DNA of 32,220 bases, taken from an uncultured bacterium (GTDB lineage: Bacteria > Patescibacteriota > Minisyncoccia > Moranbacterales > GWC2-37-73). The stretch spans positions 1 through 32,220 of the forward strand of contig CAIPMZ010000066.1 in the NCBI GenBank assembly GCA_903866285.1, given 5' to 3'. The position numbers were made by a program, and so were the translations under genes. The notes below the pieces were generated by a model that saw only the letters and a program-made list of their open reading frames with translations, ran no database searches and was not told the DNA's origin. Shown one piece after another: positions 6,969-28,516 of this stretch (positions are counted from its first letter, which is position 1; each line of letters starts with the position of its first letter).

Positions 6969-7445
6969 ATGCCAACCAAAAAACCAAAAGAAATCGTGAT
7001 TTTCCAAGCCAAAAATGGCGCAATTGAGCTGAAAGGTGATTTCAAAAAAGAAACTATCTGGGCAAGTCTGCAACAAATTGCGGATGTGTTTGGAGTGGAT
7101 AAGTCTGGTATTTCTAGGCATATTAAGAATGTTTTTAATTCTGAGGAGCTAAATGAAAAAGCAACTGTTGCAAAAATTGCAACAGCTCAAAAAGAGGGGG
7201 GTAGAAGCGTTATTCGTGAAATAGAGTATTTTAACTTGGATGTAATACTATCTGTCGGCTATAGAGTTAATTCAAAACAAGCCACAATTTTTCGTATTTG
7301 GGCAACCAAAGTTCTGCGTCAGCATATAACTAAGGGTTTTAGCATCAACCCAAAAGTAGTTAAACATAATTACGCTGAATTTCAACAGGCACTGGAGAAT
7401 ATCAAAAAACTCTTGCCAAGTTCTTTTACGTATTGCCGAAAGTAA
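6969..7445 (+). CDS. RhuM-family protein, probably C-terminally truncated
   Basis: IVIFQAKNGAIELK...TIWASLQQIADVFGVDKSGISRHIKNVF...YFNLDVILSVGYRVNSKQATIFRIWATKVLRQHITKGF matches the RhuM N-terminal half. At 158 aa it is about half the length I expect for this family. The ORF ends where the composition changes. Confidence 0.6.
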   Translation: MPTKKPKEIVIFQAKNGAIELKGDFKKETIWASLQQIADVFGVDKSGISRHIKNVFNSEELNEKATVAKIATAQKEGGRSVIREIEYFNLDVILSVGYRVNSKQATIFRIWATKVLRQHITKGFSINPKVVKHNYAEFQQALENIKKLLPSSFTYCRK

Positions 7446-10912: not shown

Positions 10913-12271
10913 TTACAATTTCAAGAGCCATCTCTTCAAACTTACATAACGAACTTTCTTTCCGTCGTAATTTTCTTCTCCTTCAAAATCTTCGGTTATG
11001 ATAAGTCCACTTTTCAATTTAAATTCAGCCATTGCTTTAAGAAGCGCTTTTATTTCTCGCTTTTTTGTCTTGATGTCTGAAAGATTCCAACAAACTTGGA
11101 TCAATTCTTTAATAATAGTATCTTCCTTAATTACAAAATCAACTTCTTCATCAGCCAAACTTTTCCAATAATAGATCGCTAAAAATGGATTAAGGTAGGA
11201 CCTTCTTTTTAGTTCCAAAAAGACGATATTTTCTGCAAGTTTACCGAGATTAGGGCTAAAGCGAAAACCGATCGTATTGGCTATGCCAGTATCCACGGCG
11301 TAAACTTTTCGAGGGCTTTTCTCTTGTTCCTTGAATTTGTAGGAAAATCTTTTCAGGAAGAATACTAAATAGGAAGCTTCGAGATAACCAGAAAAACGCT
11401 CCGTGGTTTCGGCTGACATTTGCAAAAATTGTCCAGCGGAATTGAATGTTATGGGGGAGGAAATATTGCTGAGATAAAAATTTGCCAGACTTTTGAGTTT
11501 TTCAGTTTTTCTGATTTTATAACGCTTGATCAAGTCTCTGTTGACAGTATCATCATAATAATTAAGCAAGAGTTCCTTTTTCTTTTCTTCTTCTAAAACA
11601 ACTATCGGGAAAGAACCGAACTCTGAAAATTCTTGAAACAGTTTTTTTAGTTTTACATTTTTAGCTATTAAATCTGAATTATTTTTGATTGTTAAATTTT
11701 TAAAATTCAAAAATTCTTGAAATGATAGGGGCATTACGGTTACATCTAGGTGTCTGCCTGTCAGGACTGTGGCTAATTCGCCACTCAGGAGTTTTGAATT
11801 AGAGCCGGAAAGCACTAAATTAGCCTTAGCTAGTTCTTGAGTGGTCCTAACCCACTTTTCCCAGCGTGGAACTTCTTGTATTTCATCCAGAAAAAGATAA
11901 ATTGTTCCCTTGGGAGTTTGAGATTCTAAATAAGCGTTAAAAATTTGACTAAGTAGGTCAGTACTTAAATTGACAAAGCCTGGATCTTCAAAATTAACGA
12001 TGAGGATATTTTTTTTATCGACACCAGAAGCAATCAACTTTTTAGCTAGTTGTCGCATGAGAAAGGATTTTCCGCTTCGTCTAGCTCCCGTGATTATCTT
12101 AACCTGTTGACTGGGAAGCATTTTTTCAAGCACGGTTAAGTAGGAATTCCTTCTGATGCCAGAGGCTAAGTCTTTTTTCCAAAAATTCCAATCATTTAGA
12201 ATCCCCAAAAGGTTATTTTTCTCCATATAATTATTGTATATATGATAATTTGTTAATATTTCATCATACAT
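10913..12271 (-). CDS. AAA+ ATPase with C-terminal DUF4143 (PD-(D/E)xK-like) domain, COG1373 type
   Basis: Walker A GARRSGKS, Walker B IYLFLDEIQ and C-terminal EEVDFVIKE...IQVCW. The predicted promoter at 12274..12302 ends 2 nt before the 12271 ATG, so the true start may be the ATG at 12226 (MEKNNLLGILNDWNFW). Confidence 0.85.
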   Translation of the reverse strand: MYDEILTNYHIYNNYMEKNNLLGILNDWNFWKKDLASGIRRNSYLTVLEKMLPSQQVKIITGARRSGKSFLMRQLAKKLIASGVDKKNILIVNFEDPGFVNLSTDLLSQIFNAYLESQTPKGTIYLFLDEIQEVPRWEKWVRTTQELAKANLVLSGSNSKLLSGELATVLTGRHLDVTVMPLSFQEFLNFKNLTIKNNSDLIAKNVKLKKLFQEFSEFGSFPIVVLEEEKKKELLLNYYDDTVNRDLIKRYKIRKTEKLKSLANFYLSNISSPITFNSAGQFLQMSAETTERFSGYLEASYLVFFLKRFSYKFKEQEKSPRKVYAVDTGIANTIGFRFSPNLGKLAENIVFLELKRRSYLNPFLAIYYWKSLADEEVDFVIKEDTIIKELIQVCWNLSDIKTKKREIKALLKAMAEFKLKSGLIITEDFEGEENYDGKKVRYVSLKRWLLKL

Positions 12272-12747: not shown

Positions 12748-14721
12748 ATGTATAAAAAAATAAAGCAACCATGGGAATTCAATTTTAATGTTTCGGATGC
12801 TGGAGTTTACATGATCAAAGTTTCTGCTGTGTGTCAAAATGGTAAATTTCTCGGATTATTTGGAGGAGAAGATTTGAGGGTGGAAATTGATGAGCTTAAA
12901 TTGAGGGAAATTCCTTTAGGAAATAAACCACAGTATTTTGATATTCCCTCAGCTTGGAATGGCTCAGATTTAAAGGGAACAGAAAAAACAAGTGTGTTTA
13001 TTTTGAGGTTGACTGCGGGAAAACATACTATAAAATTTATTCCGAAAAGAGGAGCTGAGCTATTAAGTGAGACGCAGATCAATAAGTTAGATATTGGTAA
13101 CTCATTGAACGTGCTGAAAGACATTCAATCATCAGAAAAAGATCGTCAATCCTGGGTTACTGTTGTGGTTGTTGATTTTCCAGTTAATTTTCTTGATGTG
13201 GAAGTTACTTGTAAAAAGAGAAATGCCTTTGATAGTGATGATATTAAGCTTGTGATTGATGGAGAAATTCAAAAAAATTCCAAGTCTAGCTGGTGGGGCA
13301 AAAACTGGTTTTGGCAAGGAAGGGATCTTCAAGGAAAAACCCAATCGAATCGGTTTTATCTTGGTCTAGTAAAAGGAATCCATTATATTGAACTTTGGGC
13401 AGACAGGAAACCTTTTTTGAATAAACTTGACTTAAATATTTTTGAAAATAATAATAATCAAGATGAAAAAAATAACATCCCAGTTGGGCCGTATGAGAAT
13501 AAAGGACCGCTTGGCAATAGTGACTATAATCGCTACGATGGGATAATTGAGGAGGTCGTCAACAAGTGGAACGAAGAATTTTTACGCGATAAATATCCAG
13601 TAGAAAAACCACTTGATCCAAACTTGGTGAAGGCGATTATTTATCGTGAAAGCAAAATGGGATATTATCCTGGTGGAGAAATTAATGTCATGCAGGTTGG
13701 AAATCCAGGCGATCCATCATTGAAAACGCTTAACGGAGAATTGACTGAATATTGGATGCAGAATGGCACAGAAAAGAAACTTGATTATAATGGCAAAGCA
13801 AATGCTGATACTCCATACGAAAGCATTTACTGGGGTATCAGGTGGCTATATCATAAAGCACAAGGAATAAGCGGTGGGAAAAGATACTGGAAAAATTGGA
13901 AGGAGGCAGTGCAAGCCTATGGACCTGGCCCTGCGGAATATGCTGATAATATCTGGCTTATTTATACTGAGGGTCTTGATAAATCAAATCCTAAGAAAAG
14001 TATAAAATTGTGGTCGTTTATTTTTATTGCTCCACTTATTTTTGGCTTACATGGTTTTTTCAATAATCCTGAAAAAATAATAGATCAAAACAGTTTTATT
14101 AAAAATAAAATATTAAATGAGAATACAACTAATTCAGTTGAATTAAATAATGTTGAGGTTATTTTTTCAGAAAGCGATCCAAAATTATTTTTTGCTATTT
14201 TGGAATGGGAAAAAGATTGGTGGGAAAATTTAAAAATAGGCAAGCTAGAAAATGACAATAATATTAAATGGTTGGCGATAGACAACCCAATAAAACAGCA
14301 ATATATTTTAAGCGCAAAATTCATATATCTGAAAGGTTTTGCAGATCCTATTTTAGAAATATATGGCAAAACGCATGTTGGAAATGGTTCACTATATCTA
14401 TATAAAATTGTTAGCAATCAGGCAGAACTACTTTTGGAAACTCAGGCAATTGATTCTAAAAATGAACTTAGCACTTCGCCCGATAATTATAAGCAATATG
14501 GATATTGGCAGTGCGATGAGGTTTTCAGAGATGGAAAATTGAAAAGCGAATATGCGGATATAAATAAAGATGGTGTTGCTGAAGTTGTGCTAAGCGGTGT
14601 TTCCGACGTTATTTGTGAAGATAATTTAGGGACAGAAAAGAAAGAAGTGGTCGTGCAAACAAATGAAATTAAAAAGGTTTTTTCTTGGAACGGGGAAAAA
14701 TATGAAGAAACTCTAAAATAA
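12748..14721 (+). CDS. large protein with two tandem beta-sandwich-like repeats, an SLT-type lytic transglycosylase motif, one internal TM helix and a C-terminal domain
   Basis: LVKAIIYRESKMG...INVMQVGNPGD...YWGIRWLY resembles the SLT E-S...MQ...Y motifs. TM helix LWSFIFIAPLIFGLHGFF. The C-terminus has an FG-GAP-like DINKDGVAEVVLSG. Confidence 0.6.
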   Translation: MYKKIKQPWEFNFNVSDAGVYMIKVSAVCQNGKFLGLFGGEDLRVEIDELKLREIPLGNKPQYFDIPSAWNGSDLKGTEKTSVFILRLTAGKHTIKFIPKRGAELLSETQINKLDIGNSLNVLKDIQSSEKDRQSWVTVVVVDFPVNFLDVEVTCKKRNAFDSDDIKLVIDGEIQKNSKSSWWGKNWFWQGRDLQGKTQSNRFYLGLVKGIHYIELWADRKPFLNKLDLNIFENNNNQDEKNNIPVGPYENKGPLGNSDYNRYDGIIEEVVNKWNEEFLRDKYPVEKPLDPNLVKAIIYRESKMGYYPGGEINVMQVGNPGDPSLKTLNGELTEYWMQNGTEKKLDYNGKANADTPYESIYWGIRWLYHKAQGISGGKRYWKNWKEAVQAYGPGPAEYADNIWLIYTEGLDKSNPKKSIKLWSFIFIAPLIFGLHGFFNNPEKIIDQNSFIKNKILNENTTNSVELNNVEVIFSESDPKLFFAILEWEKDWWENLKIGKLENDNNIKWLAIDNPIKQQYILSAKFIYLKGFADPILEIYGKTHVGNGSLYLYKIVSNQAELLLETQAIDSKNELSTSPDNYKQYGYWQCDEVFRDGKLKSEYADINKDGVAEVVLSGVSDVICEDNLGTEKKEVVVQTNEIKKVFSWNGEKYEETLK

Positions 14722-15065: not shown

Positions 15066-15782
15066 ATGAGCGGACATTCACATTGGGCGGGAATTAAACA
15101 GCGGAAAGGCGTTAATGACGCCAAGCGGGCGAAAGTCTTTACGAGGCACGGCCGGCTTATTACGATTGCGGCTAAAGAAGGTGGCGGCAAGCCAGAGATG
15201 AATTTTAAATTGCAGATGGCGATTGATAGCGCGCGGTATATGAATATGCCGAAGGAAACGATTGAACGGGCGATTAAGAAAGGTACAGGCGAACTAAAAG
15301 ATGGCGCGGAAATCGAAGAAATTATTTATGAAGGTTATGGCCCGGGTAACGTGGCGATGCTAATTAAGACCGCCACCGACAATCGCAATCGCACTGGTAG
15401 TGAAATCCGTAGTGTCCTTACGAAAGCCGGCGGCAAGCCGGCTAGCGAGGGCGGAGTTAAATTTATGTTTAAACTAGTTGGCAGTATCGCGGTGGCAGTT
15501 GAGGGTAAAACAGCAGATGACTTGGAAATGCTAGCCATTGAAGCTGGCGCCGAGGATATGACCAGTGAAGAAGAAATTTTCGTGGTTTATACTAAGGTTG
15601 AAGATTTAAAAACCGTTAAAGAAAATCTGGAAAAAGCCGGCCTGAAAATCGAAGGCGCCGAGCTAGTCTACGTACCCCTCCAAAAAACCGAGCTAACTGA
15701 AGACTTTAGGATTGAATACGAAAAACTCCTGGAGAAATTGGATGAGCATGAGGATGTGCAGGAAGTATACGACAATTTATAA
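15066..15782 (+). CDS. yebC: YebC/PmpR-family transcriptional regulator
   Basis: MSGHSHWAGIKQRKG...DAKRAKVFTR...YEGYGPGNVA...TDNRNRT are hallmark YebC motifs. Confidence 0.95.
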   Translation: MSGHSHWAGIKQRKGVNDAKRAKVFTRHGRLITIAAKEGGGKPEMNFKLQMAIDSARYMNMPKETIERAIKKGTGELKDGAEIEEIIYEGYGPGNVAMLIKTATDNRNRTGSEIRSVLTKAGGKPASEGGVKFMFKLVGSIAVAVEGKTADDLEMLAIEAGAEDMTSEEEIFVVYTKVEDLKTVKENLEKAGLKIEGAELVYVPLQKTELTEDFRIEYEKLLEKLDEHEDVQEVYDNL

Positions 15783-16094
15783 TCTTGGGGATTACGAATT
15801 ATAATTTTCAATTTTCAATTCACAATTTTCATTGAATTTTTAATGTCTTAATTTTCAAAATTGCATTTCTGTTTTTGATCATTGAGTCATCGAGATTTTA
15901 TTGGAAATTGAAAATTGGTCATTGGAAATTCCGAGAACCTAATCTTTGATTGTTAAAAACTAATTTGAAATTTGAAATTTTAAATTTTAAATCAAATCTT
16001 AATTCTAAAATGTTTGAAATATTAAAAATTTAGTCATTAAAAATTTATTAAAAATTTATTAAAAATTGAAAATTCCCCTAAACCCCTTAGGGTT
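15783..16094. repeat. mosaic low-complexity repeat block (family E) filling the yebC-ruvC spacer
   Basis: Short-period A/T-rich units (ATTTTCA, GAAATTT, AAAATTTATT) and GATTACGAAT and GGAAATTGAAAATTGG modules that recur elsewhere in the window. Confidence 0.8.
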
Positions 16095-16574
16095 TTGGGG
16101 ATAGATCCTGGCACCGCTATTGTGGGCTGGGCGGTTTTAGAGGAGGTCAAGGGCTGCGTCAAGCCAATCGCCTTCGGACATATTACGACTTCGCCAAAAA
16201 ACAGCACGGGGGAGCGACTTTTGGAGGTGGTGCGGGATTTGGAGGAAATTATTACGAAATTTCAGCCCCATGAGGCGGCCGTGGAGGATCTTTTCTTTTT
16301 TAAAAACCTAAAAACTGTCATGAAAGTAAGCCAAGCGAGAGGCTCAATCCTCTTGACACTCGAGCGATTTTGTGTTAGCATTTTTGAATACACACCGCTC
16401 CAGGTCAAGCAAGCAATCACCGGTTACGGACGAGCTGAGAAAAAGCAAATTCAAATCATGACCCAGAAAATTTTAAATCTCAAAAGCATCCCGAAACCCG
16501 ACGACACTGCCGACGCCCTCGCCATTGCGCTTTGCCATTTAAATAGTCGGAAGATGAAGGCGATCAGGAGTTAG
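16095..16574 (+). CDS. ruvC: crossover junction endodeoxyribonuclease RuvC
   Basis: GIDPGTAIVGWAV, AVEDLFF, QVKQAITGYGRAEKKQI and DDTADALAIALCH. The first canonical start is TTG at 16095, but the in-frame upstream codons read LRVL, which also looks RuvC-like. Confidence 0.9.
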   Translation: MGIDPGTAIVGWAVLEEVKGCVKPIAFGHITTSPKNSTGERLLEVVRDLEEIITKFQPHEAAVEDLFFFKNLKTVMKVSQARGSILLTLERFCVSIFEYTPLQVKQAITGYGRAEKKQIQIMTQKILNLKSIPKPDDTADALAIALCHLNSRKMKAIRS

Positions 16575-16902
16575 GATATGGATAATTTAATTTTTTCTGT
16601 GCTTAGTTGGATTAATAATTTGAAATTTAAAATTTAAAATTTGAATTGAATTTAAAATGTTTTAATTTTTTAAATTTTAAAATTTAGGCATTGATTTCAA
16701 ATTTAAAATTTCAAATTCCAAGATCCGAAATTACAAATCGTTTGAATGTTTGAGTTTTGATTGTTGAATTTTGTTTGCCTGCCTGCCGGTAGGCAGGGTT
16801 ATTGTATCTTGGTTATTGTATCTTTTACTTTGTATCTTTAGAAATTTATTTTATTTAAAAAGATGTGTTACATGCTCTATGTTTCATGTTTTGTGAAATT
16901 TT
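16575..16902. repeat. family E mosaic block with a CCTGCCGGTAGGCAGG hairpin and TTGTATCTT repeats
   Basis: 16741..16839 matches the reverse complement of 31322..31452. Confidence 0.85.
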
Positions 16903-17559
16903 ATGAACAACGTCAGTCCTCTTATCAATTTTTTTATCCAGCAGGGTGTGCCGTTGGAAACGGTTATCCTGCTTTTAATGTTGCCGGTGGTGGTAACGTT
17001 GATTGCTTTTTTCCGCCAGATAGTCGGGATTAAGGCTTTTGGCATTTATACGCCAGCGATTGTGACTTTCGCTTTTTTGGCTGTGCCTCAGCTTCGTTAC
17101 GGCGTAGTAGTTTTTGTCAGCGTTATTTTAGTCGGGATGCTGATGCGCTTTGTGCTGAAAAGTTTTCGCATCTTGTATCTTCCGCGCGTCGCCATCACCT
17201 TGAGTGTGATTGCTTTTTCAATTTTGTTTCTGCTGGGGCTGGGTGGCTATTTCCAGCGAACTGGCCTGGCTAGCGTGACGATTTTTCCAATTTTAATTAT
17301 GATTACGATTGTAGAGAAATTTGTCGTAGTTCAAATCGAGAAAGGTAATAAAGCCGCGGTTATTTTAGCCGTGGAAACCTTGGTTATTTCGCTGGCTGGT
17401 TACTATTTAGCAAGCTGGCCAATGCTAATCAAGGGCATCATCGCTTTCCCATGGCTAATTTTGATTACAATTCCAATTAATATTTTCCTCGGCAAATGGG
17501 ATGGGCTTCGCCTCACCGAATACGTGAGGTTTTGGGAAGTATTGAAGAATCTCAAATAG
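16903..17559 (+). CDS. multi-pass (about 7TM) membrane protein of the type associated with RimK-like ligases
   Basis: Six or seven hydrophobic helices. RQIVGIKAFGIYTP and GKWDGLRLTEYVRFWE resemble the 7TM module usually fused to an inactive transglutaminase (PF14402). No transglutaminase domain is present here. Confidence 0.68.
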   Translation: MNNVSPLINFFIQQGVPLETVILLLMLPVVVTLIAFFRQIVGIKAFGIYTPAIVTFAFLAVPQLRYGVVVFVSVILVGMLMRFVLKSFRILYLPRVAITLSVIAFSILFLLGLGGYFQRTGLASVTIFPILIMITIVEKFVVVQIEKGNKAAVILAVETLVISLAGYYLASWPMLIKGIIAFPWLILITIPINIFLGKWDGLRLTEYVRFWEVLKNLK

Positions 17560-17697
17560 TCCCTACGAAAGTATAAAATTTTTACAAAAGTACAAATATA
17601 CAAAATCATTTCGCGAAGTATGTCACAGTTGATTTTATATTTGCATGCTTTTATGTTTAAATGATCGTATGATTTTATGTTTAAATGATTACAGAAT

Positions 17698-19128
17698 ATG
17701 TTTGAAGAACTGAAAAATGCGCGGAAATTATTAGGACTCAATGCTCGAAATCTTAATTATATTCGGCCTTATAATAAGAAAAAATCTAAACGCTTGGCGG
17801 ATGATAAAATTTCCAGCAAGCGGGTTTTACGCAAGGCAGGGATTCCTGTGCCGAAGCTTTTGGCGCGAATTAAATCGGTAGAGGAGTTGGAAAGTTTTGA
17901 TTGGACGAGTTTGCCAGCCACTTTTGCGCTGAAACCAAATCGAGGTTTCGGCGGCGGCGGAATTTTAGTGGTATACGGGCGAAAAAAATTCTCAAAAAAG
18001 TTTTTGCAAGCTGACTTGGCTGAAATTCCCGATCCAGTTTGGATAAAATCAGATGGCTCAAAAGTAACCGTGCAGGATTTAAAAAACCAAATTCGTAATA
18101 TTTTAGATGGCGCTTTTTCGCTAGCCAATATGCCGGACACGGCTTTTTTCGAAGAGCGCTTAACTTTGCTAAAATTATTTAAACCTTATGCCTATAAAGG
18201 TATTCCTGATATTCGCGTGGTTGTTTTTAATCGGATTCCCGTTATGGCGATGTTGCGACTGCCAACGAAAGAATCTGGCGGTAAAGCCAATTTGCAACAA
18301 GGTGGTATCGGCGTGGGGATTGACCTTATCTCGGGCGTAACAACTTCAGCAGTGTTGGGCGAAGGAAAATTAATTGACTACGTGCCAGGTACACGGATGT
18401 TGCTTTCGGGGATTCGAATTCCATACTGGAAAGAAATTTTGCTCCTAGCTGTCAAAGCTCAAGAAATCTCGGGGATGGGATTTTTAGGCGCTGACGTGGC
18501 TATTGATCGCGAACGCGGGCCAGTCTTTTTGGAAATTAACGCTCGCCCGGGGCTGGGAATTCAAGTTGCTAATTTAGCTGGTCTGCGCGAAAGACTGGAA
18601 AGAATTAAGGGACTAAAAATAAAAACCGCGGCGCGCGGGGTGCGCGTAGGCCGTGATCTTTTCGGGGGCGAAGTGGAGGAAGAAGTAGAAGAAATTTCTG
18701 GACGTAAAGTGATTGGGACGATTGAAAAAATTAAACTGATCGGTCGCAGCGAAAAGTCCGTCGAGGTTGAAGCTAAAGTTGATACTGGCGCTGGCTTTAC
18801 TTCGATTGATACGGATTTAGCTGAGCAACTTGGCTTTGAAGATACCGTCAGAGAATATCAAAAAATCGAGGCCACTTATAAAGATATCAAACATTTGGAC
18901 AAAAAAGAGCGTTGGGATATTTTTAAGCATATTCCGCATTTGGAAAGTATGGTGGTTATTAATTCAGCTAGCGGCTCAACGTATCGTCCGACGATTAAAA
19001 TTACGGTTATTATGGACGGCGTCACGATTCCAACCAAAGTTACCTTAATTAATCGCGCGCATTTAAAATACCCGATTATTATTGGAAAAAGAAATTTAAA
19101 AAAGTTTTTAATTGATGTCAATAAATAG
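17698..19128 (+). CDS. alpha-L-glutamate-ligase-related ATP-grasp enzyme fused to a C-terminal retropepsin-like domain (the family annotated as ATP-dependent zinc protease)
   Basis: Opening LGLNARNLNYIRPYNKKKSKRLADDKISSKRVL, and ATP-grasp blocks ALKPNRGFGGGGI and VFLEINARPGL. The C-terminus, EAKVDTGAGFTSID...RPTIKITV...LINRAHLKYPIIIGKRNLKKFLIDV, matches PF05618-type domains. Confidence 0.8.
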   Translation: MFEELKNARKLLGLNARNLNYIRPYNKKKSKRLADDKISSKRVLRKAGIPVPKLLARIKSVEELESFDWTSLPATFALKPNRGFGGGGILVVYGRKKFSKKFLQADLAEIPDPVWIKSDGSKVTVQDLKNQIRNILDGAFSLANMPDTAFFEERLTLLKLFKPYAYKGIPDIRVVVFNRIPVMAMLRLPTKESGGKANLQQGGIGVGIDLISGVTTSAVLGEGKLIDYVPGTRMLLSGIRIPYWKEILLLAVKAQEISGMGFLGADVAIDRERGPVFLEINARPGLGIQVANLAGLRERLERIKGLKIKTAARGVRVGRDLFGGEVEEEVEEISGRKVIGTIEKIKLIGRSEKSVEVEAKVDTGAGFTSIDTDLAEQLGFEDTVREYQKIEATYKDIKHLDKKERWDIFKHIPHLESMVVINSASGSTYRPTIKITVIMDGVTIPTKVTLINRAHLKYPIIIGKRNLKKFLIDVNK

Positions 19129-19135
19129 TTGGTGT

Positions 19136-20074
19136 ATGAAAAAAATTCTTTTTATTGGGATTGGTAAAGAAGAAAATCAAAAACAGCGCATGCTTAAGGC
19201 TCTCGTTAAGGCTGGGGTAGGCTGCGTTTATGTTAAATGGTCAGAGTTAGCCTTTTTGGGCAATAAGCTTTACGCACAATCTAAGGAAATCGATTTAAAG
19301 CAATTTGGAGCCGTGTTTTTTGATACACCAAGGTTTACCGTTAAATCAGTAAAGAGTAATAAAAAAATAGCTTTTAACTTGGGAAATGAGTTGCAACTTT
19401 TATTGACAAGCTTGAAAGAAAACAATGTTTATACCTTAAACCAAGATTTTTTTCTCAAATATCCTTATTATAATAAATTTTCCCAGGCTTATATTTTTGC
19501 AAGTAATGAAATTCCTTCCATCCCAACCCTGCATCTAGCTGATAATAAGGTTAGTAAAATTTCGGAAATTTTAATTGAAAAGAATTTTAATTTTCCAATC
19601 ATAGTAAAGGAAGGCTATGGCGAGGGTGGCGAAGGCGTTTGGAAGCTTGATAATCAGCTTGAACTAAACAGTTTTATCGCCAAGCGAAGAAGCGAAAATC
19701 TTATCTTCCAACCTTTTATAAAAAATGATGGTGATTATCGGGTGATTGTTGCGAATGGGAAATGTCTAGGGATTATGAAACGGAGCGCTCAGGGTGGTGA
19801 GTGGAAAAATAATTTTTCGTTGGGCGGGGAGGTTGCAAGACATGAGGATGAAGAAATGAAAAAGTTTGCGGTTAAGGCTTGCCAGAAAATGAAACTGGAT
19901 ATGGCTGGTCTGGATATTTTTTCTACGCCAACGGGCTTTTTAGTAATTGAGGCTAATTTATTTTTTGGACTGGACGGTTTTGAATCTGTTTTTGAAGAGC
20001 TAGACGTTTCAGCGGAAATAGTTAAAATGCTGGTTGCAAAACTGGAAGAAGACAATGGGCAAGAAAGTTTTTAA
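19136..20074 (+). CDS. RimK-like ATP-grasp ligase
   Basis: PIIVKEGYGEGGEGVW, QPFIKNDGDYRVIVANGKCLGIMKRSAQGGEWKNNFSLGG and AGLDIFSTPTGFLVIEANL. I chose the ATG at 19136 (MKKILFIGIG) over the TTG at 19112, which overlaps the upstream stop. Confidence 0.75.
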   Translation: MKKILFIGIGKEENQKQRMLKALVKAGVGCVYVKWSELAFLGNKLYAQSKEIDLKQFGAVFFDTPRFTVKSVKSNKKIAFNLGNELQLLLTSLKENNVYTLNQDFFLKYPYYNKFSQAYIFASNEIPSIPTLHLADNKVSKISEILIEKNFNFPIIVKEGYGEGGEGVWKLDNQLELNSFIAKRRSENLIFQPFIKNDGDYRVIVANGKCLGIMKRSAQGGEWKNNFSLGGEVARHEDEEMKKFAVKACQKMKLDMAGLDIFSTPTGFLVIEANLFFGLDGFESVFEELDVSAEIVKMLVAKLEEDNGQESF

Positions 20075-20097
20075 ATAGTACGTTAATAGGTTAGAAA

Positions 20098-20205
20098 TTT
20101 TACGAGCTTATTTACTTTTTAGAGCCCGCACTTGACCGAAAACAATGGTCAAGTGCTTAACTCGCTGTCGCTCATATGGCCTAAAAAGCAAATAAGCTCG
20201 TAAAA
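20098..20205. repeat. 108-nt long-hairpin element (25-bp terminal inverted repeats, inner 10-bp hairpin)
   Basis: TTTTACGAGCTTATTTACTTTTTAG pairs with CTAAAAAGCAAATAAGCTCGTAAAA (1 mismatch). The inner hairpin is GCACTTGACC-N9-GGTCAAGTGC. Confidence 0.75.
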
Positions 20206-20284
20206 ATTCAGAAGTAATCTTTAGCTAGAGTTGTATACTGCGCATGTCTCGGGAATGCTCGTAATTTTTTAAAAAAACAGGGTA

Positions 20285-21226
20285 ATGAAAAAAGTAATGA
20301 TTCTTTTTGGGCGAAGTGACTGGGAAAAAGCGAAACCTTTTGATAATAAGGATTACCAGTATTCCTATGAATATTTTTATGACCTGTGTAGGGAGAATGG
20401 GATTCAAATGTATCGGGCTTCGTATCAGTGGTATGACTATGAAAAAAACCTTTTTAAATATGCTTGGATTTATGAAGGGAGTGGCGGCAAATGGCGCAAA
20501 GTTGAAAATATCGAGCCTGATTTGGTTTATGATAAAACGAAATCGCGGGCTGAGGTTTATTATAAAAAAGAATTGATCGCGCAGACTTACCCTTTCATTA
20601 ATGATTTAAATTTTACTAAAATTGTCGACGATAAGTTTGTGACCAGTTTAATTTTTCCGCAGTGGTCGAAAAAAAGTTATTTAATTAAAACCAAGGCAGA
20701 TTTAGAAAAAATTCTGCCAAAGTTAAAAACCGCTAAGGTGGTAATTAAACCCTTAAGCGAAAGTGGTGGGAAAGGGGTGCAACTTCTGGAAAAAACAGAA
20801 CTTGAAAAAGTTGAGTTTAGCGGCGAAAATCTGGTGCAGGAATTTATTGATTCGGCCAAGGGCGTGCCGGGAGTTAGCGTTGGTATGCACGATCTGCGCT
20901 TGGTTTTTGTTGGCGAGAAATTAAGTTATGCTTATCTGCGAGAGCCGAAAGTGGGAAGTTTCCTAGCTAATTTAGCCCAAGGCGGAAAATTAACTATTGT
21001 GCCCGTGGAGAATTTGCCAAAAGCTTTAGCGCCAATTGTCGAATTTATTAATGAAACTTTTAGTTCTTTTCCTGACCGAATTTTTGCGATTGATTTTATG
21101 TTTGATGAAACTGGCCAGCCTTGGATTGTAGAACTTAACTCCATGCCCGGACTTTTTTTCTCCCCGGAGGAAAAACCGTATATGATTGAAATGTATCAAG
21201 AGCTGCTGAAGGTTTTTAAAAAGTAA
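20285..21226 (+). CDS. third ATP-grasp ligase (YheC/D- or TTL-like)
   Basis: VVIKPLSESGGKGV, VQEFIDS, HDLRLVFVGEKLSYAYLREPKVGSFLANLAQGG and FAIDFMFDETGQPWIVELNSMPG. Confidence 0.65.
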   Translation: MKKVMILFGRSDWEKAKPFDNKDYQYSYEYFYDLCRENGIQMYRASYQWYDYEKNLFKYAWIYEGSGGKWRKVENIEPDLVYDKTKSRAEVYYKKELIAQTYPFINDLNFTKIVDDKFVTSLIFPQWSKKSYLIKTKADLEKILPKLKTAKVVIKPLSESGGKGVQLLEKTELEKVEFSGENLVQEFIDSAKGVPGVSVGMHDLRLVFVGEKLSYAYLREPKVGSFLANLAQGGKLTIVPVENLPKALAPIVEFINETFSSFPDRIFAIDFMFDETGQPWIVELNSMPGLFFSPEEKPYMIEMYQELLKVFKK

Positions 21227-21248: not shown

Positions 21249-21276
21249 TTGAAAAATAAGTTAGTTCCTGTATAAT
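21249..21276 (+). promoter_or_regulatory. possible promoter TTGAAA-N16-TATAAT upstream of the PBP1A gene
   Basis: The hexamers are good, but an 11-bp-stem hairpin (21277..21302) follows immediately, so it could instead be part of a terminator region. Confidence 0.4.
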
Positions 21277-21484
21277 AAAGCAGCTTTGAAAAAAGCTGCT
21301 TTAAGCGTATAATATATTTGAGACTTATGCATTTGCTCAAAAATTCCTAGAGCGTAATTTTTTTGCTAAGTAAACTGCTCTTGGTCTACTTCAAGTCTTT
21401 TTCACTAAGGGAGTCGCCTGTAAGTAATTTTCTCTCAAACGCATAAGTTCCAAATAAAAGCAATCTTTAGTTGAAATTTCCTAT

Positions 21485-21652
21485 ATGCGACCAATTTTTA
21501 TTTCTCAAAAATTTAAAAAAATTAAAAATATGTCTGCCGGAGAAAGGTGGAAACTTTTCGGTAAAATTATACTGGTTGGTTTTGGGCTGTTGGTCTTGCT
21601 GATTGTGGGGACTTTTTTCTATTTTGCTAAAGATTTGCCGAGCGCTAATTAG
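21485..21652 (+). pseudogene. N-terminal membrane-anchor segment of the PBP1A gene, ending at an in-frame TAG (21650..21652)
   Basis: ATG at 21485 encodes a 55-aa segment, ...WKLFGKIILVGFGLLVLLIVGTFFYFAKDLPSAN, then TAG. It is in the same frame as, and directly abuts, the catalytic ORF starting VDARLVAQSTKIYDRSG. Confidence 0.7.
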
Positions 21653-24031
21653 GTGGATGCTAGGTTGGTTGCTCAATCGACTAAAATTTATGATCGGAGT
21701 GGCCAGCATCTTTTGTATGACGTCCATGGGGAAGAAAAGCGGACGGTCGTACCTTTTAATCAAATTCCGGAGAACGTAAAATACGCCACGATCGCCCTAG
21801 AAGACCAAACTTTCTATACGCATTATGGTATTGACTTAAAATCTATTTTGCGTTCCGTTTTTAAGGATATTATTAGAGGTGGGGCAGTTCAAGGCGGGAG
21901 CACAATTACGCAGCAGTTTATTAAAAAATCCTTGCTGACTGACGAGAAAACGATTACCCGAAAAGTTAAAGAGCTAATTTTATCAATTGAGCTGGAGCAA
22001 AAATATTCTAAAGATGATATTTTGGCGATGTACCTTAACCAAATTCCGTATGGCTCGAGCGCTTATGGGATCGAAGCAGCCTCGCAAACTTTTTTTAGTA
22101 AATCTTCTAAGGAGTTATCTTTAGCTGAAGCTGCTTTACTGGCAGCGCTCCCAAATGCGCCGACGTATTACTCACCTTTTGGCTCACACGTCAAAAACTT
22201 AAAAGCCAGGCAAAATCTAACGCTCCAAAAAATGGCCGAGCAGGGTTACATTACCCAGGCGCAAGCTGACGAAGCGATGGCGGTGGACGTGCTTTCCGCG
22301 ATAGCGCCGAAACAGGATAATATTTCAGCTCCGCATTTTGTGATGTACGTGAAAGATTATTTGGAACAAAAATATGGCGAGCAGGCTGTCGAGCAAGGCG
22401 GTTTAAAAGTTTATACCACCCTGGATTGGGATAAACAACAAGCGGCCGAAAAAGCCGTCGCTGAGGGTGCGGAAAAAAATAAGGCGCAAAATGCTAATAA
22501 CGCAGCCCTGATCGCGATGGATCCGAAAACAGGCCAAATTTTAGCGATGGTCGGCAGTAAAAATTATTTTGGGAAATCCGAGCCGGCTGGTTGTATTTCG
22601 GGAAAAAATTGTACCTTTGAACCGCAAGATAATACCAGTATCCGCGATCGCCAACCGGGCTCATCTTTTAAGCCGTACGTTTATTTAACGGCTTTTACAA
22701 AAGGTTATACCCCAGAAACCTTGCTTTATGACGTAGCAACAAATTTTTCTACGGATGAAGGTAAGGACTATAAACCTCAAAATTATGACGGAAAATTTCA
22801 TGGCGCCCTCCAAATGAAAAATGCTTTAGCGATGTCGCTTAATATCCCAGCGGTAAAAGCCCTTTATCTAGCTGGAGTCAACGATTCCATCAATTTAGCT
22901 AAAAGTCTTGGGATTACCGGCCTTAATCAGCCTGATCGTTACGGCCTTTCTTTGGTGTTGGGCGGTGGCGAGGTAACACTCTTGGACCACGTTAACGCTT
23001 ATAGCGGTTTAGCTGCGGGCGGAATTCAGCACACTAAAACGGCTATCTTAAAAATTCAAGATAAAGACGGCACAACTTTGGAAGAATACAAAAATGAGTC
23101 AGGGCAGCGAGTTGTGGAGGAAAAATATGTAGCGATGCTGGATCATATTATGTCAACTAACGATTATCGCGCGCCCGTTTTTGGCGAAAATAACCCTTTT
23201 AAATTTACGGATCGACCCGTGGCCGCCAAAACTGGAACAACGAATGAATTCCGAGATGGTTGGGCAATGGGCTTTACGCCATCCTTGGCAGCTGGCGTCT
23301 GGGCTGGAAATAATGATAATGCTTCGATGAAAACTGGGGCGGATGGAATTGTGGTCGCGGCTCCAATTTGGCGAGCTTTTATGAATGAAGCTTTAAAAAA
23401 TACCCCGGTCGAACAATTTCCAAAATATGAAAAAGAAGATGCTGGTAAACCGATTTTAAATGGGGAAGTCGATAAAAAAGATAATTTAAAAGTTTGTAAA
23501 ATTCCGGGCACTAAAAGTGAGTATTGTTTAGCTAGCGACGCTTGTCCGTCGGGAGACGTTGAGAAAAAAGACTTTGCGGATTTACATGACATTCTTTATT
23601 ACGTTAAGCGCGATGATCCGCGGGGAGATTATCCCAAAGATCCAACCAATGATCCGCAATATAAAAATTGGGAAAAAGGCCTGCAAGATTGGCTGAAAAA
23701 AGAGGGCAAGAGCAGTAAGAATAAACCAGCCCCAACGGAAGATTGTAAGTTGTCAGATTTTTCGTCCGCTAACCAACCGAAAGTTTCTGTTTCAGCTACG
23801 GGTGGTGTTTTAGCTGGGATGACGCTGCAGGCTAGCGTCGACGCTCCTTACGGCGTGGATAAAGTTAAATTTTATGTGGATGGTAGCGAAATAGGCACGG
23901 CTAGCGCTAGTCCCTATCAAATTTCTTATGCGCCAGACGCGGGCACAATTTCCATTGAAATTAAAGCGACCGTTACTGATAAAAAAGGTAACCAAACTAG
24001 CGATTCGAAAAATATTTCCGTCAGCCCGTAA
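21653..24031 (+). CDS. class A penicillin-binding protein (GT51 transglycosylase plus transpeptidase) with a C-terminal Ig-like domain
   Basis: GT51 motifs ALEDQTFYTHYGID, GGSTITQQ and RKVKELILSIELE. Transpeptidase motifs SSFKP and KTGTT. This ORF lacks its own TM anchor. Confidence 0.92.
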   Translation: MDARLVAQSTKIYDRSGQHLLYDVHGEEKRTVVPFNQIPENVKYATIALEDQTFYTHYGIDLKSILRSVFKDIIRGGAVQGGSTITQQFIKKSLLTDEKTITRKVKELILSIELEQKYSKDDILAMYLNQIPYGSSAYGIEAASQTFFSKSSKELSLAEAALLAALPNAPTYYSPFGSHVKNLKARQNLTLQKMAEQGYITQAQADEAMAVDVLSAIAPKQDNISAPHFVMYVKDYLEQKYGEQAVEQGGLKVYTTLDWDKQQAAEKAVAEGAEKNKAQNANNAALIAMDPKTGQILAMVGSKNYFGKSEPAGCISGKNCTFEPQDNTSIRDRQPGSSFKPYVYLTAFTKGYTPETLLYDVATNFSTDEGKDYKPQNYDGKFHGALQMKNALAMSLNIPAVKALYLAGVNDSINLAKSLGITGLNQPDRYGLSLVLGGGEVTLLDHVNAYSGLAAGGIQHTKTAILKIQDKDGTTLEEYKNESGQRVVEEKYVAMLDHIMSTNDYRAPVFGENNPFKFTDRPVAAKTGTTNEFRDGWAMGFTPSLAAGVWAGNNDNASMKTGADGIVVAAPIWRAFMNEALKNTPVEQFPKYEKEDAGKPILNGEVDKKDNLKVCKIPGTKSEYCLASDACPSGDVEKKDFADLHDILYYVKRDDPRGDYPKDPTNDPQYKNWEKGLQDWLKKEGKSSKNKPAPTEDCKLSDFSSANQPKVSVSATGGVLAGMTLQASVDAPYGVDKVKFYVDGSEIGTASASPYQISYAPDAGTISIEIKATVTDKKGNQTSDSKNISVSP

Positions 24032-24196: not shown

Positions 24197-24273
24197 GCTA
24201 AGAAAAGTTTGTTTAAAATAATTTTTTAGCGAGCCCATGCTGCATGTTTCATGTTTCATGTTCTATGTCTTCA

Positions 24274-24846
24274 ATGATAGCAAAACTAACCGGTACAATT
24301 GATTTTCTGCGCGAGGCCTATTTAGTCTTGGATGTCAGTGGCGTCGGCTACAAGGTTTTCGTAACTGCTCACACCATGGGGAAACTAGCGGGCCGAACTA
24401 ATGTCGAGCTTCATATTCATACTTACGTACGCGAAGATATTTTAGCGCTGTATGGTTTTGTGGATTTTGAAGAATTGGAAATGTTTGAACTGCTAATTTC
24501 AATTTCGGGCATCGGCCCGAAGGCGGCGCTCAGCATTCTTTCGATTGCGGATCCGAAAACCGTTTGCGCGGCGGTTTTAAACGATGACGCTACTATTTTA
24601 ACGAGGGTTTCAGGGGTCGGTAAAAAAATTGCCCAGCGGGTAATTTTAGAACTGAAAAATAAAATTCCGAACATGTCCCTTGGCGAAAAAACGCAAGTCG
24701 TTTCCGACAGCGATGCGCTAGAAGCTTTAGTCACAATGGGCTATTCCGTCACCCAGGCCCGCGAAACGCTTAAGGAGATTTCGCCAGAAATTACCGACGT
24801 TGGTCAGCGCGTAAAAATAGCCTTGAAAAATTTAGGTAAGCGGTAG
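24274..24846 (+). CDS. ruvA: Holliday junction DNA helicase subunit RuvA
   Basis: MIAKLTGTIDFL...VLDVSGVGYKVFV...LYGF...ELEMFELLISISGIGPKAALSIL...LTRVSGVGKKIAQRVILELK. I chose the ATG at 24274 over the repeat-derived ATG at 24244. Confidence 0.92.
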   Translation: MIAKLTGTIDFLREAYLVLDVSGVGYKVFVTAHTMGKLAGRTNVELHIHTYVREDILALYGFVDFEELEMFELLISISGIGPKAALSILSIADPKTVCAAVLNDDATILTRVSGVGKKIAQRVILELKNKIPNMSLGEKTQVVSDSDALEALVTMGYSVTQARETLKEISPEITDVGQRVKIALKNLGKR

Positions 24847-24945: not shown

Positions 24946-27900
24946 ATGCCAAACCAAAAAAGATTGACGTTAATTAAGAAAAATAAACAAGGCTCCGCGC
25001 TAGTTTTTGCGCTTATCATTTTGTCTATGATGCTTACTGTCGCCATGAGTTTATCTACGGCAGCGGTAATGCAAAAGAAAAATGCCAGTTCCACCCAATC
25101 TTCTGTTCAAGCTTATCAAATTGCTGATAGTGGCGCTCAACTAGCACTTCGAATAATAAATCAAAAAATCACCTCGCTAGATATTGACCAACGGAGGGTA
25201 TTAGGTGCCTTCAGTAATTGCACCAATGGGGTAGTAGCTTTTAACGGTGGTAATTTGCCTGCGAATACAACCTTGAGCATTTCTTTTTTTAACGCTGAAG
25301 CTGTACCTAGATTAGTTGCCTGTAATGAACTCATTGATACCGTAGCCTCTATTCATGCAACTGCCCAAAATTTAAATAACGTCCGCGCTGTGGAACTAGC
25401 GGTTTCCAAGGAAGCTTCGCCAGTTGCTTGGTGGAAGTTTGATGATAGCACTGGTCCAACTGCAACCGATTCAAGTGGCAATTCTTTTGATGGAACTTTA
25501 ACTAATTTTCCAAGTTTAACCTCACCCTGGACAACAACAGGCAGATTACTGGGCGCGCTTAATTTTGATGGAAATGACGATTACGTGAATACAAGTTTTA
25601 ATCCTGCTTCTTCTCTTGGCCAAAGCTTTACTATTGAGAGTTGGGTTTATCCTACGGAGGCTGCTAATTATCGCGGAATTTGGGGTGCTCACGGAGCAAG
25701 TCCGTTTACAGGTATTGTGTTACAGCATAATAGGGGCGAATGGATAGCTAGCATTGGGGATGGTAGCACTTGGCATGAAATTGAGTTAGGAGTATTTGAG
25801 CTGAATAAATGGACCCATGTAGCAATAGTTTTTGAAGGTAGCCCGGCTGGGTCGGACGGTTTTTTAAAAGGCTATATTAATGGAGGATCAGGATCGAGTG
25901 GCAGTAGAACAATAGCAGCCACGATTAGTGGTCTCCAAGTTGTCCATGATCCATCTTTTTGGATAGGGCGCGGACATTCAGATTCTAGTAATAGATACTT
26001 CAAAGGTACAATTGATGACGTTAAAATTTTTGACTACGCTCTGTCGGGTCGAGAAATTTATAATGACTATCGAGACGGCTTTTTTAATTGTGTGGGTAAT
26101 TTGATAACAGGCGGAAGTTATTACCCAGGTGATGAAACTGACCCTCCGGAAAATCTTAACCCAGTGTACGATCCAATTGGAACAGATCGAAAATGTGAAT
26201 TTTTTTGTAGCGATTACTTCAACTGGCATGATCCAGATTGCCTTGAAGCAGTCTGCATGGGACTGCCTACAAATGCCACAGGATTTCCTTTACCTGATCC
26301 AGAGCCCTTAAAAGACAAGGCTTATACCTATAGTGGCATTGATAATCTTACGGTTACGTGTGAATTTGCTTGCAATACAGATTATGTTTATTATGCTCCA
26401 ACTAACACTTGCAATACTTGTACTGGGAGCGTGCCTGGTAATGCCGCAATGTATGCAAATGATAAAGATGGTTTGTCCGCAAATACCCCCCATATTAGAA
26501 GCGGCTCAAACACCTCAGCGAATTGTGAATATGAATGTGATGATTACTATAACTGGAATGGCAACAATTGCGAAAATGCAGCAATTTGTACGGGCCTGCC
26601 TGCGAATGCGGTAGCTTTTACTGATACTGGTAATCAAACGCCATTAAAAGACAAGGCGTATACTTTTAGTAGTAGTTATACGCCGGGAGATAAATGCGAA
26701 TTTACTTGCAATAGTGGGTACGTCTATGATAGCTCGGCTAAAATATGCGTAGGAAATCCTCCATCGGTGGAATACTTAGTGGTAGCTGGTGGCGGTGGTG
26801 GAGGTATGGATATGGGTGGCGGTGGCGGTGGCGGTGGCGTACTGAGTAATAGTTATAATGTTTCTATAAATCAAGCTTATACAGTTACAGTGGGTCTTGG
26901 CGGAGCGGGAGCTCCCGCTGCCGGCACGAATGGTCAACCAGCCGGACATCAATATACAGTGCCAGCCAACAATGGTCAGAACTCTGTTTTTGGAGCTATT
27001 ACGGCCGTAGGCGGTGGCCGTGGCGGAAGTTCCGGGAATAGTTATACCCCGGGTTCAGCCGGCGCTATGGGCGGTTCAGGCGGGGGAGCTTCGGGCTATA
27101 ATAATACGGCGGTAGATAGTTGGGTTTATTGCGCCGGCGAAAACGGTACTTGTTCATTCAGCGGGACATATGACGTTAAGTACGGTTGGGGTGGTAGCTG
27201 GGCATACCGATATGGCGTTGTCAATTCAATTTCTTGTAATAATGCTACCTTCGGAGATCCGATTCGTAAAAAAGTGAAGGCTTGTTATTATCATTTAATT
27301 AATTTAAATAACGCCTTGGGCGGCGCTGGAACTTCGGGCCAAGGAAACTCAGGTGGAAATCAGGGCAGTCCTTATTATTCGGGTGGTGGCGGCGGGGCTG
27401 GTGGGGCGGGGGCTAGTGGTAATGGTCAGGCTAATGGCGGAGTCGGATATCAAAGTTCAATTACAGGTGCAAATTTTTATTGGGGCGGCGGTGGCGGTGG
27501 CGCTGGGCATAGTATTACGGGGGGAAATGGTGGAGCTGGCGGCGGTGGCGGCGGGGCAGTCGGGGTAACAAGCGGCGGAGCAGGCCTGAATAATGGGCAA
27601 GCTGGCGGTGGCGGAGCTATTAATAGCTGGGCAAATACTCCCGGGGGAAATGCTGGCGCAAATACGGGCGGTGGCGGTGGGGGTGGCTCTCATTATAACG
27701 CGAATAATAAGGGTGGTGATGGTGGTTCGGGGATTGTGGTAATCCGGTATCCAGATAATTACATTGATTCAGTAACAACTGGGACAGTTGCCTACACCCA
27801 CGTAAATGGTTTTAAAATTTATACCTGGACCTCTTCAGGGTCAATAAATTTCTCGACTCAAGCAATGGCTACTTCTTGCGCAAATATTCTAGCCACTGGA

Positions 27901-28431: not shown

Positions 28432-28447
28432 CTAAAAGTTGCTAAAC

Positions 28448-28490
28448 AAAAAAGAGAGTCTTAATTTTAACAAGGCTCTCTTTTTATTTT
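28448..28490 (+). terminator. intrinsic terminator after the giant surface protein gene
   Basis: AGAGAGTC-N13-GGCTCTCT followed by TTTTTATTTT. Confidence 0.65.
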
Positions 28491-28516
28491 CTAGGTTTTA
28501 CTGGTATACTTTAAAG

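Follow-up and report, generated by a model that had tools for sequence, protein, structure and literature searches.

A putative fused variant of the Rlo system with interchangeable accessory ATP-grasp ligases in an uncultured Moranbacterales bacterium

The locus described here occupies positions 16903-21226 of a 32,220-nt window (the whole stretch of DNA that was analysed; assembly GCA_903866285.1, contig CAIPMZ010000066.1) from an uncultured bacterium of the Moranbacterales, GWC2-37-73, and carries four genes, g1 to g4, encoding a seven-transmembrane (7TM) protein, an ATP-grasp ligase fused to a retropepsin-like peptidase, and two further ATP-grasp ligases. Judged by the protein families that it encodes, the locus is a compact, fused variant of the Rlo system, which has been named and genetically characterised in Proteobacteria. 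It is classed as a variant, rather than as RloABC proper, because the transglutaminase domain and the secreted protease are absent and because the equivalog cut-offs are missed. The conserved core is the 7TM gene together with the fusion gene, and g3 and g4 are members of an interchangeable accessory set. An original prediction for this DNA had described four co-directional genes; all four open reading frames (ORFs) were confirmed on the + strand at the following coordinates.

g1, 16903-17559, + strand, 218 aa: stand-alone RloB-type 7TM module without a pseudo-transglutaminase domain
g2, 17698-19128, + strand, 476 aa: ATP-grasp ligase fused to a retropepsin
g2 N-terminal domain (residues 1-322), 17698-18663, + strand: RloC-type ATP-grasp amidoligase
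g2 acidic linker GGEVEEEVEEISGRKVI (residues 323-339), 18664-18714, + strand: predicted to be disordered or flexible
g2 C-terminal domain (residues 340-476 and stop), 18715-19128, + strand: RimB/RloA-family retropepsin-like aspartic peptidase, with DTG at 18781-18789
g3, 19136-20074, + strand: accessory RimK-family ATP-grasp ligase of a rare subfamily
Palindromic hairpin in the g3-g4 spacer, 20094-20209, no strand: resembles a miniature inverted-repeat transposable element (MITE-like), outside the enzyme system, marking the variable region
g4, 20285-21226, + strand: accessory divergent ATP-grasp ligase (RimK/YheCD/TTL-like) of the commonest accessory subfamily

Associations of ATP-grasp ligases with 7TM-inactive-transglutaminase proteins and peptidases in peptide synthesis or modification were reportedly predicted by Iyer, Abhiman, Burroughs and Aravind in 2009 (in Mol Biosyst), a study that is said to be prediction only and to have given the Pfam families their names. 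The rloABC operon of Pseudomonas aeruginosa is such a triad of 7TM protein, ligase and retropepsin (Lormand et al., mBio 2025, PMC12239564). Its RloA proteases are retropepsins that the cell secretes and that cut stretches of 8 or more Glu. A mutant lacking all three proteases does not survive hypo-osmotic medium and shows shape, biofilm and beta-lactam defects, whereas deletion of rloB or rloC suppresses the lethality and defects caused by the loss of the RloA proteases (PMC12239564). According to the Rlo authors, the product and the substrate are still to be identified (PMC12239564). The earlier statement that product and target are uncharacterised is thus partly outdated: the triad itself is rloABC, with its mutant phenotypes and a protease that cleaves poly-Glu, and the statement still holds for the product.

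The locus resembles RloABC in that the same three families (PF14402, PF14397/TIGR02291 and PF05618) are encoded together, in that the DTG motif and the poly-Glu-coordinating Lys/Arg residues are shared, and in the placement of the ligase in the cytoplasm and the 7TM protein in the membrane. However, g1 lacks the periplasmic inactive transglutaminase domain of RloB, the place of which is taken by PKD domains in some relatives from the Candidate Phyla Radiation (CPR), and the g2 peptidase is fused, cytosolic and free of Cys, whereas RloA is separate, secreted and furnished with conserved disulfide cysteines. In addition, the core is followed by further ATP-grasp ligases, the organism that carries it is a monoderm-like member of the CPR, and g1, the g2 ligase and the peptidase all score under the NCBIfam Rlo equivalog cut-offs. 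A canonical Rlo-type operon on a Legionella plasmid (L087) was the source of the RloA-, RloB- and RloC-like proteins used for comparison below.

Two other enzyme pairs offer partial parallels. RimB trims the poly-Glu product of RimK and stimulates RimK, and both RimB and RloA cleave poly-Glu (PMC11957791, PMC12239564); a RimB-RimK hybrid (RimBK) has been characterised and is proteolytically active (Little et al., JBC 2025, PMC11957791). As in RimBK, g2 joins an ATP-grasp ligase to a cytosolic retropepsin-like endopeptidase, but the RimB domain is N-terminal in RimBK, whereas the peptidase is C-terminal in g2. The g2 ligase is also of the RloC type and not RimK, RimK-RimB has no membrane partner, and RimK targets ribosomal protein S6, whereas g2 has no assigned target. 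In the TTL/TTLL and MATCAP systems, a ligase likewise adds C-terminal residues that a dedicated peptidase removes; relatives of g2 are fused to MATCAP, MATCAP genes occur in 10 of 68 related gene islands, and g4 has a short TTL match, but the window holds no MATCAP gene and the tubulin substrates are absent. In the literature searched, no description was found of the arrangement seen in CPR bacteria, in which the 7TM protein stands alone, a cytosolic ligase is fused to a retropepsin and an island of ligases and peptidases varies, nor of a link between retropepsin decay and the presence of MATCAP.

The ligase half of g2 matches PF14397 (ATPgrasp_ST) over residues 17-304 with an E-value of 3e-63 (214 bits, cut-off 31.4) and TIGR02291, "alpha-L-glutamate ligase-like", with an E-value of 2e-79 (266.8 bits, under the equivalog cut-off of 314.2); on these profile scores it is a member of the TIGR02291/RloC family and not a certified equivalog. 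Its domain aligns over the full length of the Legionella RloC-like protein (41% identity over 295 aa, E 1e-72), and K79, D266, E279 and N281 are invariant. Direct reading of the sequences showed that g2, g3 and g4 all retain the Lys, Asp and Glu-x-Asn residues characteristic of active ATP-grasp enzymes, and neither a transmembrane segment nor a signal peptide was predicted in any of the three. The AlphaFold2 model of g2 (mean predicted local distance difference test, pLDDT, 77.7) consists of two folded domains with the low-confidence acidic linker between them (residues 325-339, pLDDT <50). The best Foldseek matches of this model were ArgX/LysX, RimK, cyanophycin synthetase and PsnB. The substrates of all these enzymes are carboxylates of peptides or proteins, which argues for an acceptor of that kind. 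The top 50 matches were ATP-grasp proteins only, with no retropepsin structure among those listed, so that the retropepsin assignment rests on sequence evidence.

That evidence begins with a match of residues 338-475 to PF05618 (E 3e-10) and to the RloA3 model (E 5e-11); in bits, the RloA1-3 models score 26-43 against cut-offs of 210-280. The motif KVDTGAGFTSID lies at residues 360-371 with its DTG intact, which bears out the earlier description of g2 as a TIGR02291-type ligase fused to a PF05618 retropepsin with a DTG motif. The domain also matches PDB 9g58 (E 0.0016) and gives two weak collinear matches to the Legionella RloA-like protein. In RloA, K46, R114 and R137 were shown by mutagenesis to bind poly-Glu around D48 (PMC12239564). 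By alignment, these four residues correspond to K360, D362, R430 and R453 of g2, which are kept in 81 of 81 distinct species-level Moraniibacteriota loci, with K or R at the K360 position. The two Arg residues stand at +68 and +91 from the catalytic Asp in g2, and at +66 and +89 in RloA, 9g58 and the Legionella protein. Since the poly-Glu-binding residues are retained, an acidic substrate may be proposed for the g2 peptidase. The domain has no signal peptide, no hydrophobic N-terminal segment, no transmembrane segment and no Cys, and on these features it is assigned to the cytosol, as is RimB.

The acidic linker between the two domains follows the pattern FGGE[IV]EEExE[ED]xSG, which is conserved across the 81 loci with occasional substitutions. 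The mean number of Glu per 30 linker residues is 4.3 in proteins with an intact DTG (n=46) and 2.5 in those with a degenerate one (n=21), a difference with a Mann-Whitney p of 2e-5 among representatives at 50% identity, in which kinship is not corrected for. Because linker Glu content tracks the intact DTG, this pattern suggests that the linker serves as a pseudosubstrate or dock by contacting the peptidase's basic substrate channel. Autoprocessing at the linker was also considered, but with at most 3 consecutive Glu the linker fits the cleavage requirements poorly, RimB requiring 5-6 (PMC11957791) and RloA 8 (PMC12239564). A docking or pseudosubstrate role is thus the more likely of the two on the sequence pattern.

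The stand-alone 7TM protein g1 matches PF14402 (7TM_transglut) with an E-value of 4.4e-29, and it covers only positions 307-507 of the 508 in the NCBIfam RloB model NF052267 (79.5 bits, cut-off 900). It aligns with residues 310-500 of the Legionella RloB-like protein at 29% identity (E 2e-21). The 328-nt spacer 5' of g1 is AT-rich and non-coding, with no coding capacity for a transglutaminase, showing that the domain is truly absent from g1, as had been claimed when g1 was first described as a stand-alone 7TM protein. PF14402 stands alone in more than 120 protein clusters, almost all of which are 217-233 aa long. Seven hydrophobic segments are present, and an N-out/C-in topology is predicted because it fits the distribution of Lys and Arg, with 14 in the predicted inside loops and C-tail and 3 in the outside loops. 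In L085, a further locus with the pair of 7TM and fusion genes, PKD domains occupy the N-terminal place of the transglutaminase in the 7TM protein, as would suit an extracytoplasmic N-terminus able to accept various domains. The AlphaFold2 model of g1 has a pLDDT of 70.5, and a fold search with it against the PDB returned nothing at E<1. Matches to an NqrD/RnfA-like fold were marginal (template modelling score 0.34-0.42) and were not taken as evidence; since no solved structural relative was matched, no inference on transport is drawn from the fold.

A homologue scan with one genome per species yielded at least 563 stretches encoding a relative, of which the best 80 were analysed. All 80 derive from Moraniibacteriota, with the full-length fusion in every one; the source names for homologues of g1 and g2 are Candidatus Moranbacteria or Moraniibacteriota (Patescibacteria, CPR). 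The order YebC - RuvC - 7TM - fusion is essentially invariant, and the 7TM gene adjoins the fusion gene in essentially all of the 80 loci with the flank available. The pair also appears in other settings: on a short contig of unknown origin (L084), where the two genes overlap by 4 nt; in L089, whose gene context is unrelated and includes neighbouring heliorhodopsin and two-component genes; and in L091, from another CPR lineage, where no PBP1A gene is found at that position. Downstream of the pair lies a variable island of 0.3-4.9 kb, followed by PBP1A, in the 68 loci with both anchors found. Extra ATP-grasp modules number none in 2 islands, one in 30, two in 28 and three in 8, so that 66 of 68 have at least one and 36 of 68 have two or three; they fall into 24 subfamilies at 40% identity, with the g4 type in 14 of 68 loci (orthologues 52-99% identical) and the g3 type in 3. 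The islands also hold MATCAP/DUF1704 metallopeptidases (10 loci), GT1 glycosyltransferases (10), YdjC (8), RimK-DUF3541 fusions (4), GNAT proteins (3) and Mur-type ligases (2).

The claim that the genes form a co-conserved cluster is therefore sustained for g1 and g2, which remain adjacent even in L089, and not for g3 and g4, which are variable. Three features that had been called unusual proved ordinary: the ligase-peptidase fusion is standard in the phylum (81 of 81 loci) and is found in other lineages too, loss of the transglutaminase is standard in Moraniibacteriota, and an extra ligase is the phylum norm. As a separate observation, DUF3541 recurs as a conserved partner domain, beside RimK-like ligases or fused to them, across L020, L025, L035, L059, L090 and L091; the RimK-DUF3541 fusions are those of the 4 Moraniibacteriota loci, and separate DUF3541 genes are present in L090 and L091.

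The genes could also be compared with those of a near-conspecific contig, L004, in which YebC and RuvC are 99.6% and 98.7% identical at the amino-acid level. The ratio of nonsynonymous to synonymous divergence (dN/dS) is 0.026 for g1, 0.033 for g2, 0.023 for g4 and 0.26 for g3, with 0.017-0.021 for the reference genes YebC and RuvC. Thus, g1, g2 and g4 are under strong purifying selection, and all four genes are under purifying selection; these low ratios identify them as real genes rather than chance ORFs.

A survey of the best 150 representatives at 50% identity further revealed independent natural fusions, which support a physical coupling of the core proteins. Ligase-retropepsin proteins account for 92 of the 150, 36 of them with a C-terminal MATCAP domain (PF08014); 9 are ligase-MATCAP proteins without a detectable retropepsin, and 48 are ligase only. 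One ligase-retropepsin protein bears a second C-terminal ATP-grasp domain. Some relatives (P0260 and P0269) join the 7TM module and the ligase in a single chain. Of 50 two-domain forms, 43 retain an intact DTG motif; of 19 forms with an additional MATCAP domain, only 5 do. From this pattern, one active peptidase, of either kind, seems to be required beside the ligase, and the decay of DTG upon MATCAP fusion argues that a peptidase to trim the product is indispensable to the ligase. Likewise, the covalent joining of 7TM module to ligase and of ligase to peptidase argues that the three activities form one membrane-associated complex, and the cytosolic location of the peptidase here implies that the trimming step need not be periplasmic.

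The accessory ligase g3 matches PF08443 (RimK) with an E-value of 2.4e-25, scores 107 bits on TIGR00768 (under the cut-off of 143), and finds RimK as its best PDB matches (E about 1e-11). It begins at the ATG at 19136, 7 nt after the g2 stop, so that its start is the 8th base, in agreement with the earlier description of a RimK-like gene starting 8 nt past the previous stop. The orthologue in L004, which lies about 195 nt after g2, likewise begins MKKILFIGIG, making the listed TTG at 19112 an unlikely start. Relative to L004, residues 1-205 have a synonymous divergence (dS) of 1.33 and a nonsynonymous divergence (dN) of 0.25, whereas dS is 0.08 over residues 206-312. The divergent tract (19136-19750, against 4602-5225 of L004) retains 55-70% amino-acid identity, and the flanking genes are 98-100% identical, with dS of 0.08-0.31. 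Positive selection in situ was rejected in favour of recombination, because dS is saturated in the same segment, where dN/dS is 0.19. The N-terminal two-thirds of g3 are clearly a recombinant divergent allele, a tract swapped inside one gene. The replaced region includes the part that normally confers acceptor specificity in ATP-grasp enzymes.

For g4, several Pfam models pass their cut-offs: RimK (43.8 bits), ATPgrasp_ST (36.1), GSH-S_ATP (33.5), YheCD (33.1) and TTL (28.7), so that the label YheC/D- or TTL-like is acceptable, with RimK scoring best. The matches to YheCD (PF14398, residues 243-307) and TTL (PF03133, residues 259-297) are short and C-terminal, the latter spanning only about 40 residues. 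Taken together, the Pfam and NCBIfam searches found every domain call of the original prediction correct, with support for PF14402, PF14397/TIGR02291, PF05618, RimK and YheCD. A match of the ligases to known enzymes of primary metabolism had been named as grounds for doubt, and none reaches an NCBIfam cut-off. On the RimK equivalog NF007764 (cut-off 331 bits), g3, g4 and g2 score 48.6, 20.6 and 12.7 bits. The best scores, with cut-offs in brackets, are 46 (272) for glutathione synthase (GshB), 20 (850) for cyanophycin synthetase (CphA), about 16-17 (245-246) for Ddl, 60 (276) for LysX/ArgX, 76 (350) for MptN and 56 (300) for CofF. None of the grounds for refutation stated with the original prediction is therefore borne out. 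The PADLOC defence models gave zero matches to the four proteins.

On this evidence, stepwise synthesis of a peptide or poly-amino-acid tail at the membrane is a reasonable hypothesis, and the reading preferred here, with a probability of about 0.5, is a membrane-docked machine that would synthesise and trim an acidic peptide, with accessory ligases diversifying it. In this scheme, g1 and g2 would act together at the cytoplasmic face of the membrane, where the g2 ligase would use ATP to add amino acids, most likely Glu, to the carboxyl end of an acceptor peptide or protein, giving an acidic, poly-alpha-Glu-like chain. Less weight is put on Glu specifically than on the general scheme. The fused endopeptidase, which as a retropepsin would have to dimerise for activity, could then trim or release the chain in cis, as RimB does for RimK. 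The 7TM protein would dock g2 and then either export the product or be the site of its use, and g3 and g4 would add other residues or serve other acceptors, leading to strain-specific products. By analogy with Rlo, the physiological role is probably tied to the envelope or to osmotic stress; it is one of the parts of the scheme that we infer, along with the amino acid used, the acceptor and the export.

Several points weigh against this scheme. For no RloB or RloC homologue is a product, acceptor or transport activity known, and the poly-Glu assignment derives from the in vitro specificity of the Pseudomonas protease. g1, g2 and the peptidase domain all miss the NCBIfam Rlo/TIGR02291 equivalog cut-offs, the cluster holds no candidate acceptor gene, and "exporter" is a guess for g1, whose model has no solved structural relative. 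The protease is, moreover, outside the cytoplasm in Pseudomonas but inside here, so that the logic of the system may differ.

A bolder version of the same scheme, which is doubtful as it stands, would make the locus a self-contained non-ribosomal machine for acidic peptides. Here the docked RloC-type ligase would polymerise Glu, perhaps primed or regulated by its own Glu-rich linker, the retropepsin would set the chain length, the ligases would be swappable, and the product would be exported as a hypervariable surface or envelope peptide. If true, the locus would be a peptide counterpart of capsule or O-antigen loci in CPR bacteria, and the same chemistry would identify the RloB/RloC product in Pseudomonas and Vibrio. 

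Whatever the product, RloB and RloC matter in Pseudomonas for tolerance of stress, sensitivity to beta-lactams, biofilm formation and virulence screens, and the natural fusions of the CPR version limit how an Rlo mechanism could work. With only four genes, the CPR cluster is a compact construct that lends itself to heterologous expression and mass spectrometry. In the island, the differences in ligases between strains point to an unnoticed source of surface or metabolite diversity in these streamlined, symbiotic and largely uncultivated CPR bacteria.

An alternative that is possible, though rather unlikely, is tailoring of the cell wall or an envelope polymer, in which the ligases would add amino acids to peptidoglycan precursors (as side branches or cross-bridges, like the ATP-grasp D-Asp ligase) or to a glycopolymer, with the 7TM protein as flippase or scaffold. 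Both in the window and in the 68 Moraniibacteriota loci with both anchors found, PBP1A comes directly after the cluster; genes for a FemAB-family protein and a Mur ligase are situated 5-9 kb downstream, and the islands of relatives hold GT1 glycosyltransferases, YdjC deacetylases and Mur-type ligases. Pseudomonas Rlo mutants also show cell-shape, beta-lactam and hypo-osmotic lysis phenotypes (PMC12239564). However, the adjacency to PBP1A reflects shared ancestry within one phylum and is absent in L089, L091 and the Legionella plasmid; as a functional clue it was downgraded, since other lineages keep the same core without PBP1A. PBP1A has strong promoter-like sites of its own, no ligase passes the cut-off of a Ddl, Mur or pseudomurein model, and a cytosolic poly-Glu-type endopeptidase would have no obvious role in such a pathway.

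Regulatory modification of a cytosolic protein of the RimK/RimB type, such as poly-glutamylation and trimming of the S6 tail without export, is less probable again. In its favour, the g2 peptidase is cytosolic like RimB, an active RimB-RimK hybrid exists (PMC11957791), and g3 belongs to the RimK family with RimK as its best PDB matches. The ligase that is fused to the peptidase is, however, of the RloC type, with 12.7 bits on the RimK equivalog model, and g3 itself reaches 48.6 of 331 bits and represents a subfamily found in 3 of 68 loci. The near-universal coupling to a 7TM protein, including covalent 7TM-ligase fusions, would not be expected from this explanation, and a housekeeping modifier of S6 would not be swapped between strains.

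A pathway for a ribosomally synthesised and post-translationally modified peptide of the graspetide type, or for another small peptide, would have the ATP-grasp enzymes modify a precursor, the protease cut its leader and the 7TM protein export it. In the fold search, the graspetide ligase PsnB ranked near the top, and the set of ligases differs between strains, much as it does in natural-product loci. This explanation is nevertheless very improbable: a search of the spacers found no conserved small precursor or acceptor ORF within the cluster or next to it, neither the length nor the sequence of the spacers is constant, and the genes abut or overlap in relatives. The Pfam families are moreover those of amidoligases (RimK/ATPgrasp_ST) and not of graspetide macrocyclases, and there are no signatures of defence or conflict. 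Chance clustering of primary-metabolism ligases (for glutathione, cyanophycin, D-Ala-D-Ala, lysine/arginine carrier-protein synthesis or cofactor glutamylation) has weak sub-threshold matches to those families on its side but is effectively excluded, as every score is far under its curated cut-off, no LysW-like carrier or other pathway gene is nearby, and the repertoire differs between conspecific strains.

Turning to the spacers, the palindromic element between g3 and g4 is about 116 nt long, with 29-nt arms that are 93% complementary and a perfect 10-bp inner stem (GCACTTGACC/GGTCAAGTGC). The RNA fold of this spacer has a free energy of -62.4 kcal/mol (z -4.9) with no Rfam match; an Rfam scan of the whole window likewise matched no family, and no tRNAs were found in it. 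The window holds one copy of the element and L004 two (4442-4570 and 5569-5684), the other lying between g2 and g3, and in more distant relatives, where the two genes abut, it is missing. It looks like a small mobile (MITE-like) repeat that marks a recombining region. At 17620-17690, in the g1-g2 spacer, a stretch of about 20 nt (TGATTTTATGTTTAAATGAT) is directly repeated as a near-copy; the corresponding spacer of most relatives is far shorter, or the genes overlap there. Upstream of g1, positions 16617-16721 carry AT-rich inverted and direct repeats of the AAATTTAAAATTT type, with 50-nt arms that are 74% complementary, and are followed by a GC-rich hairpin after RuvC at 16774-16797; the repeat run may be a promoter/terminator region or another repeat element. 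A promoter and terminator scan was near background except for the hairpin after RuvC and two 11/12 promoter-like sites at 21249-21313, before PBP1A, a weak indication that g1-g4 may form a unit of their own, apart from PBP1A.

The PBP1A gene itself (21485-24031) has an in-frame TAG at 21650-21652, which splits the N-terminal membrane anchor (MRPIF...FYFAKDLPSAN*) from the glycosyltransferase/transpeptidase part, with a restart at the GTG at 21653. The gene is intact in L001 (851 aa) and split at another place in L002; the TAG could be a sequencing error, a pseudogene mutation or a read-through codon. The ruv genes are scattered round the cluster, with RuvB at 2641-3651, YebC-RuvC immediately upstream (15066-16574) and RuvA after PBP1A (24244-24846). 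The cluster appears to be an old insertion in the ruv neighbourhood, because in L091 the ligase cluster is flanked by YebC-RuvC on one side and RuvA-RuvB on the other. Further downstream are a PilX_N/Laminin_G protein of 1161 aa (24946-28431), the FemAB-family protein of the peptidoglycan interpeptide-bridge type (28439-29638) and the Mur ligase (29796-31256). Upstream of the cluster, an ORF of 657 aa (12748-14721) has no Pfam match. A RhuM-family fragment of 158 aa (6969-7445), which matches only the first third of its profile, and an AAA_14/DUF4143 ATPase on the - strand (10913-12271) suggest remnants of mobile or defence-related DNA in the same upstream region.

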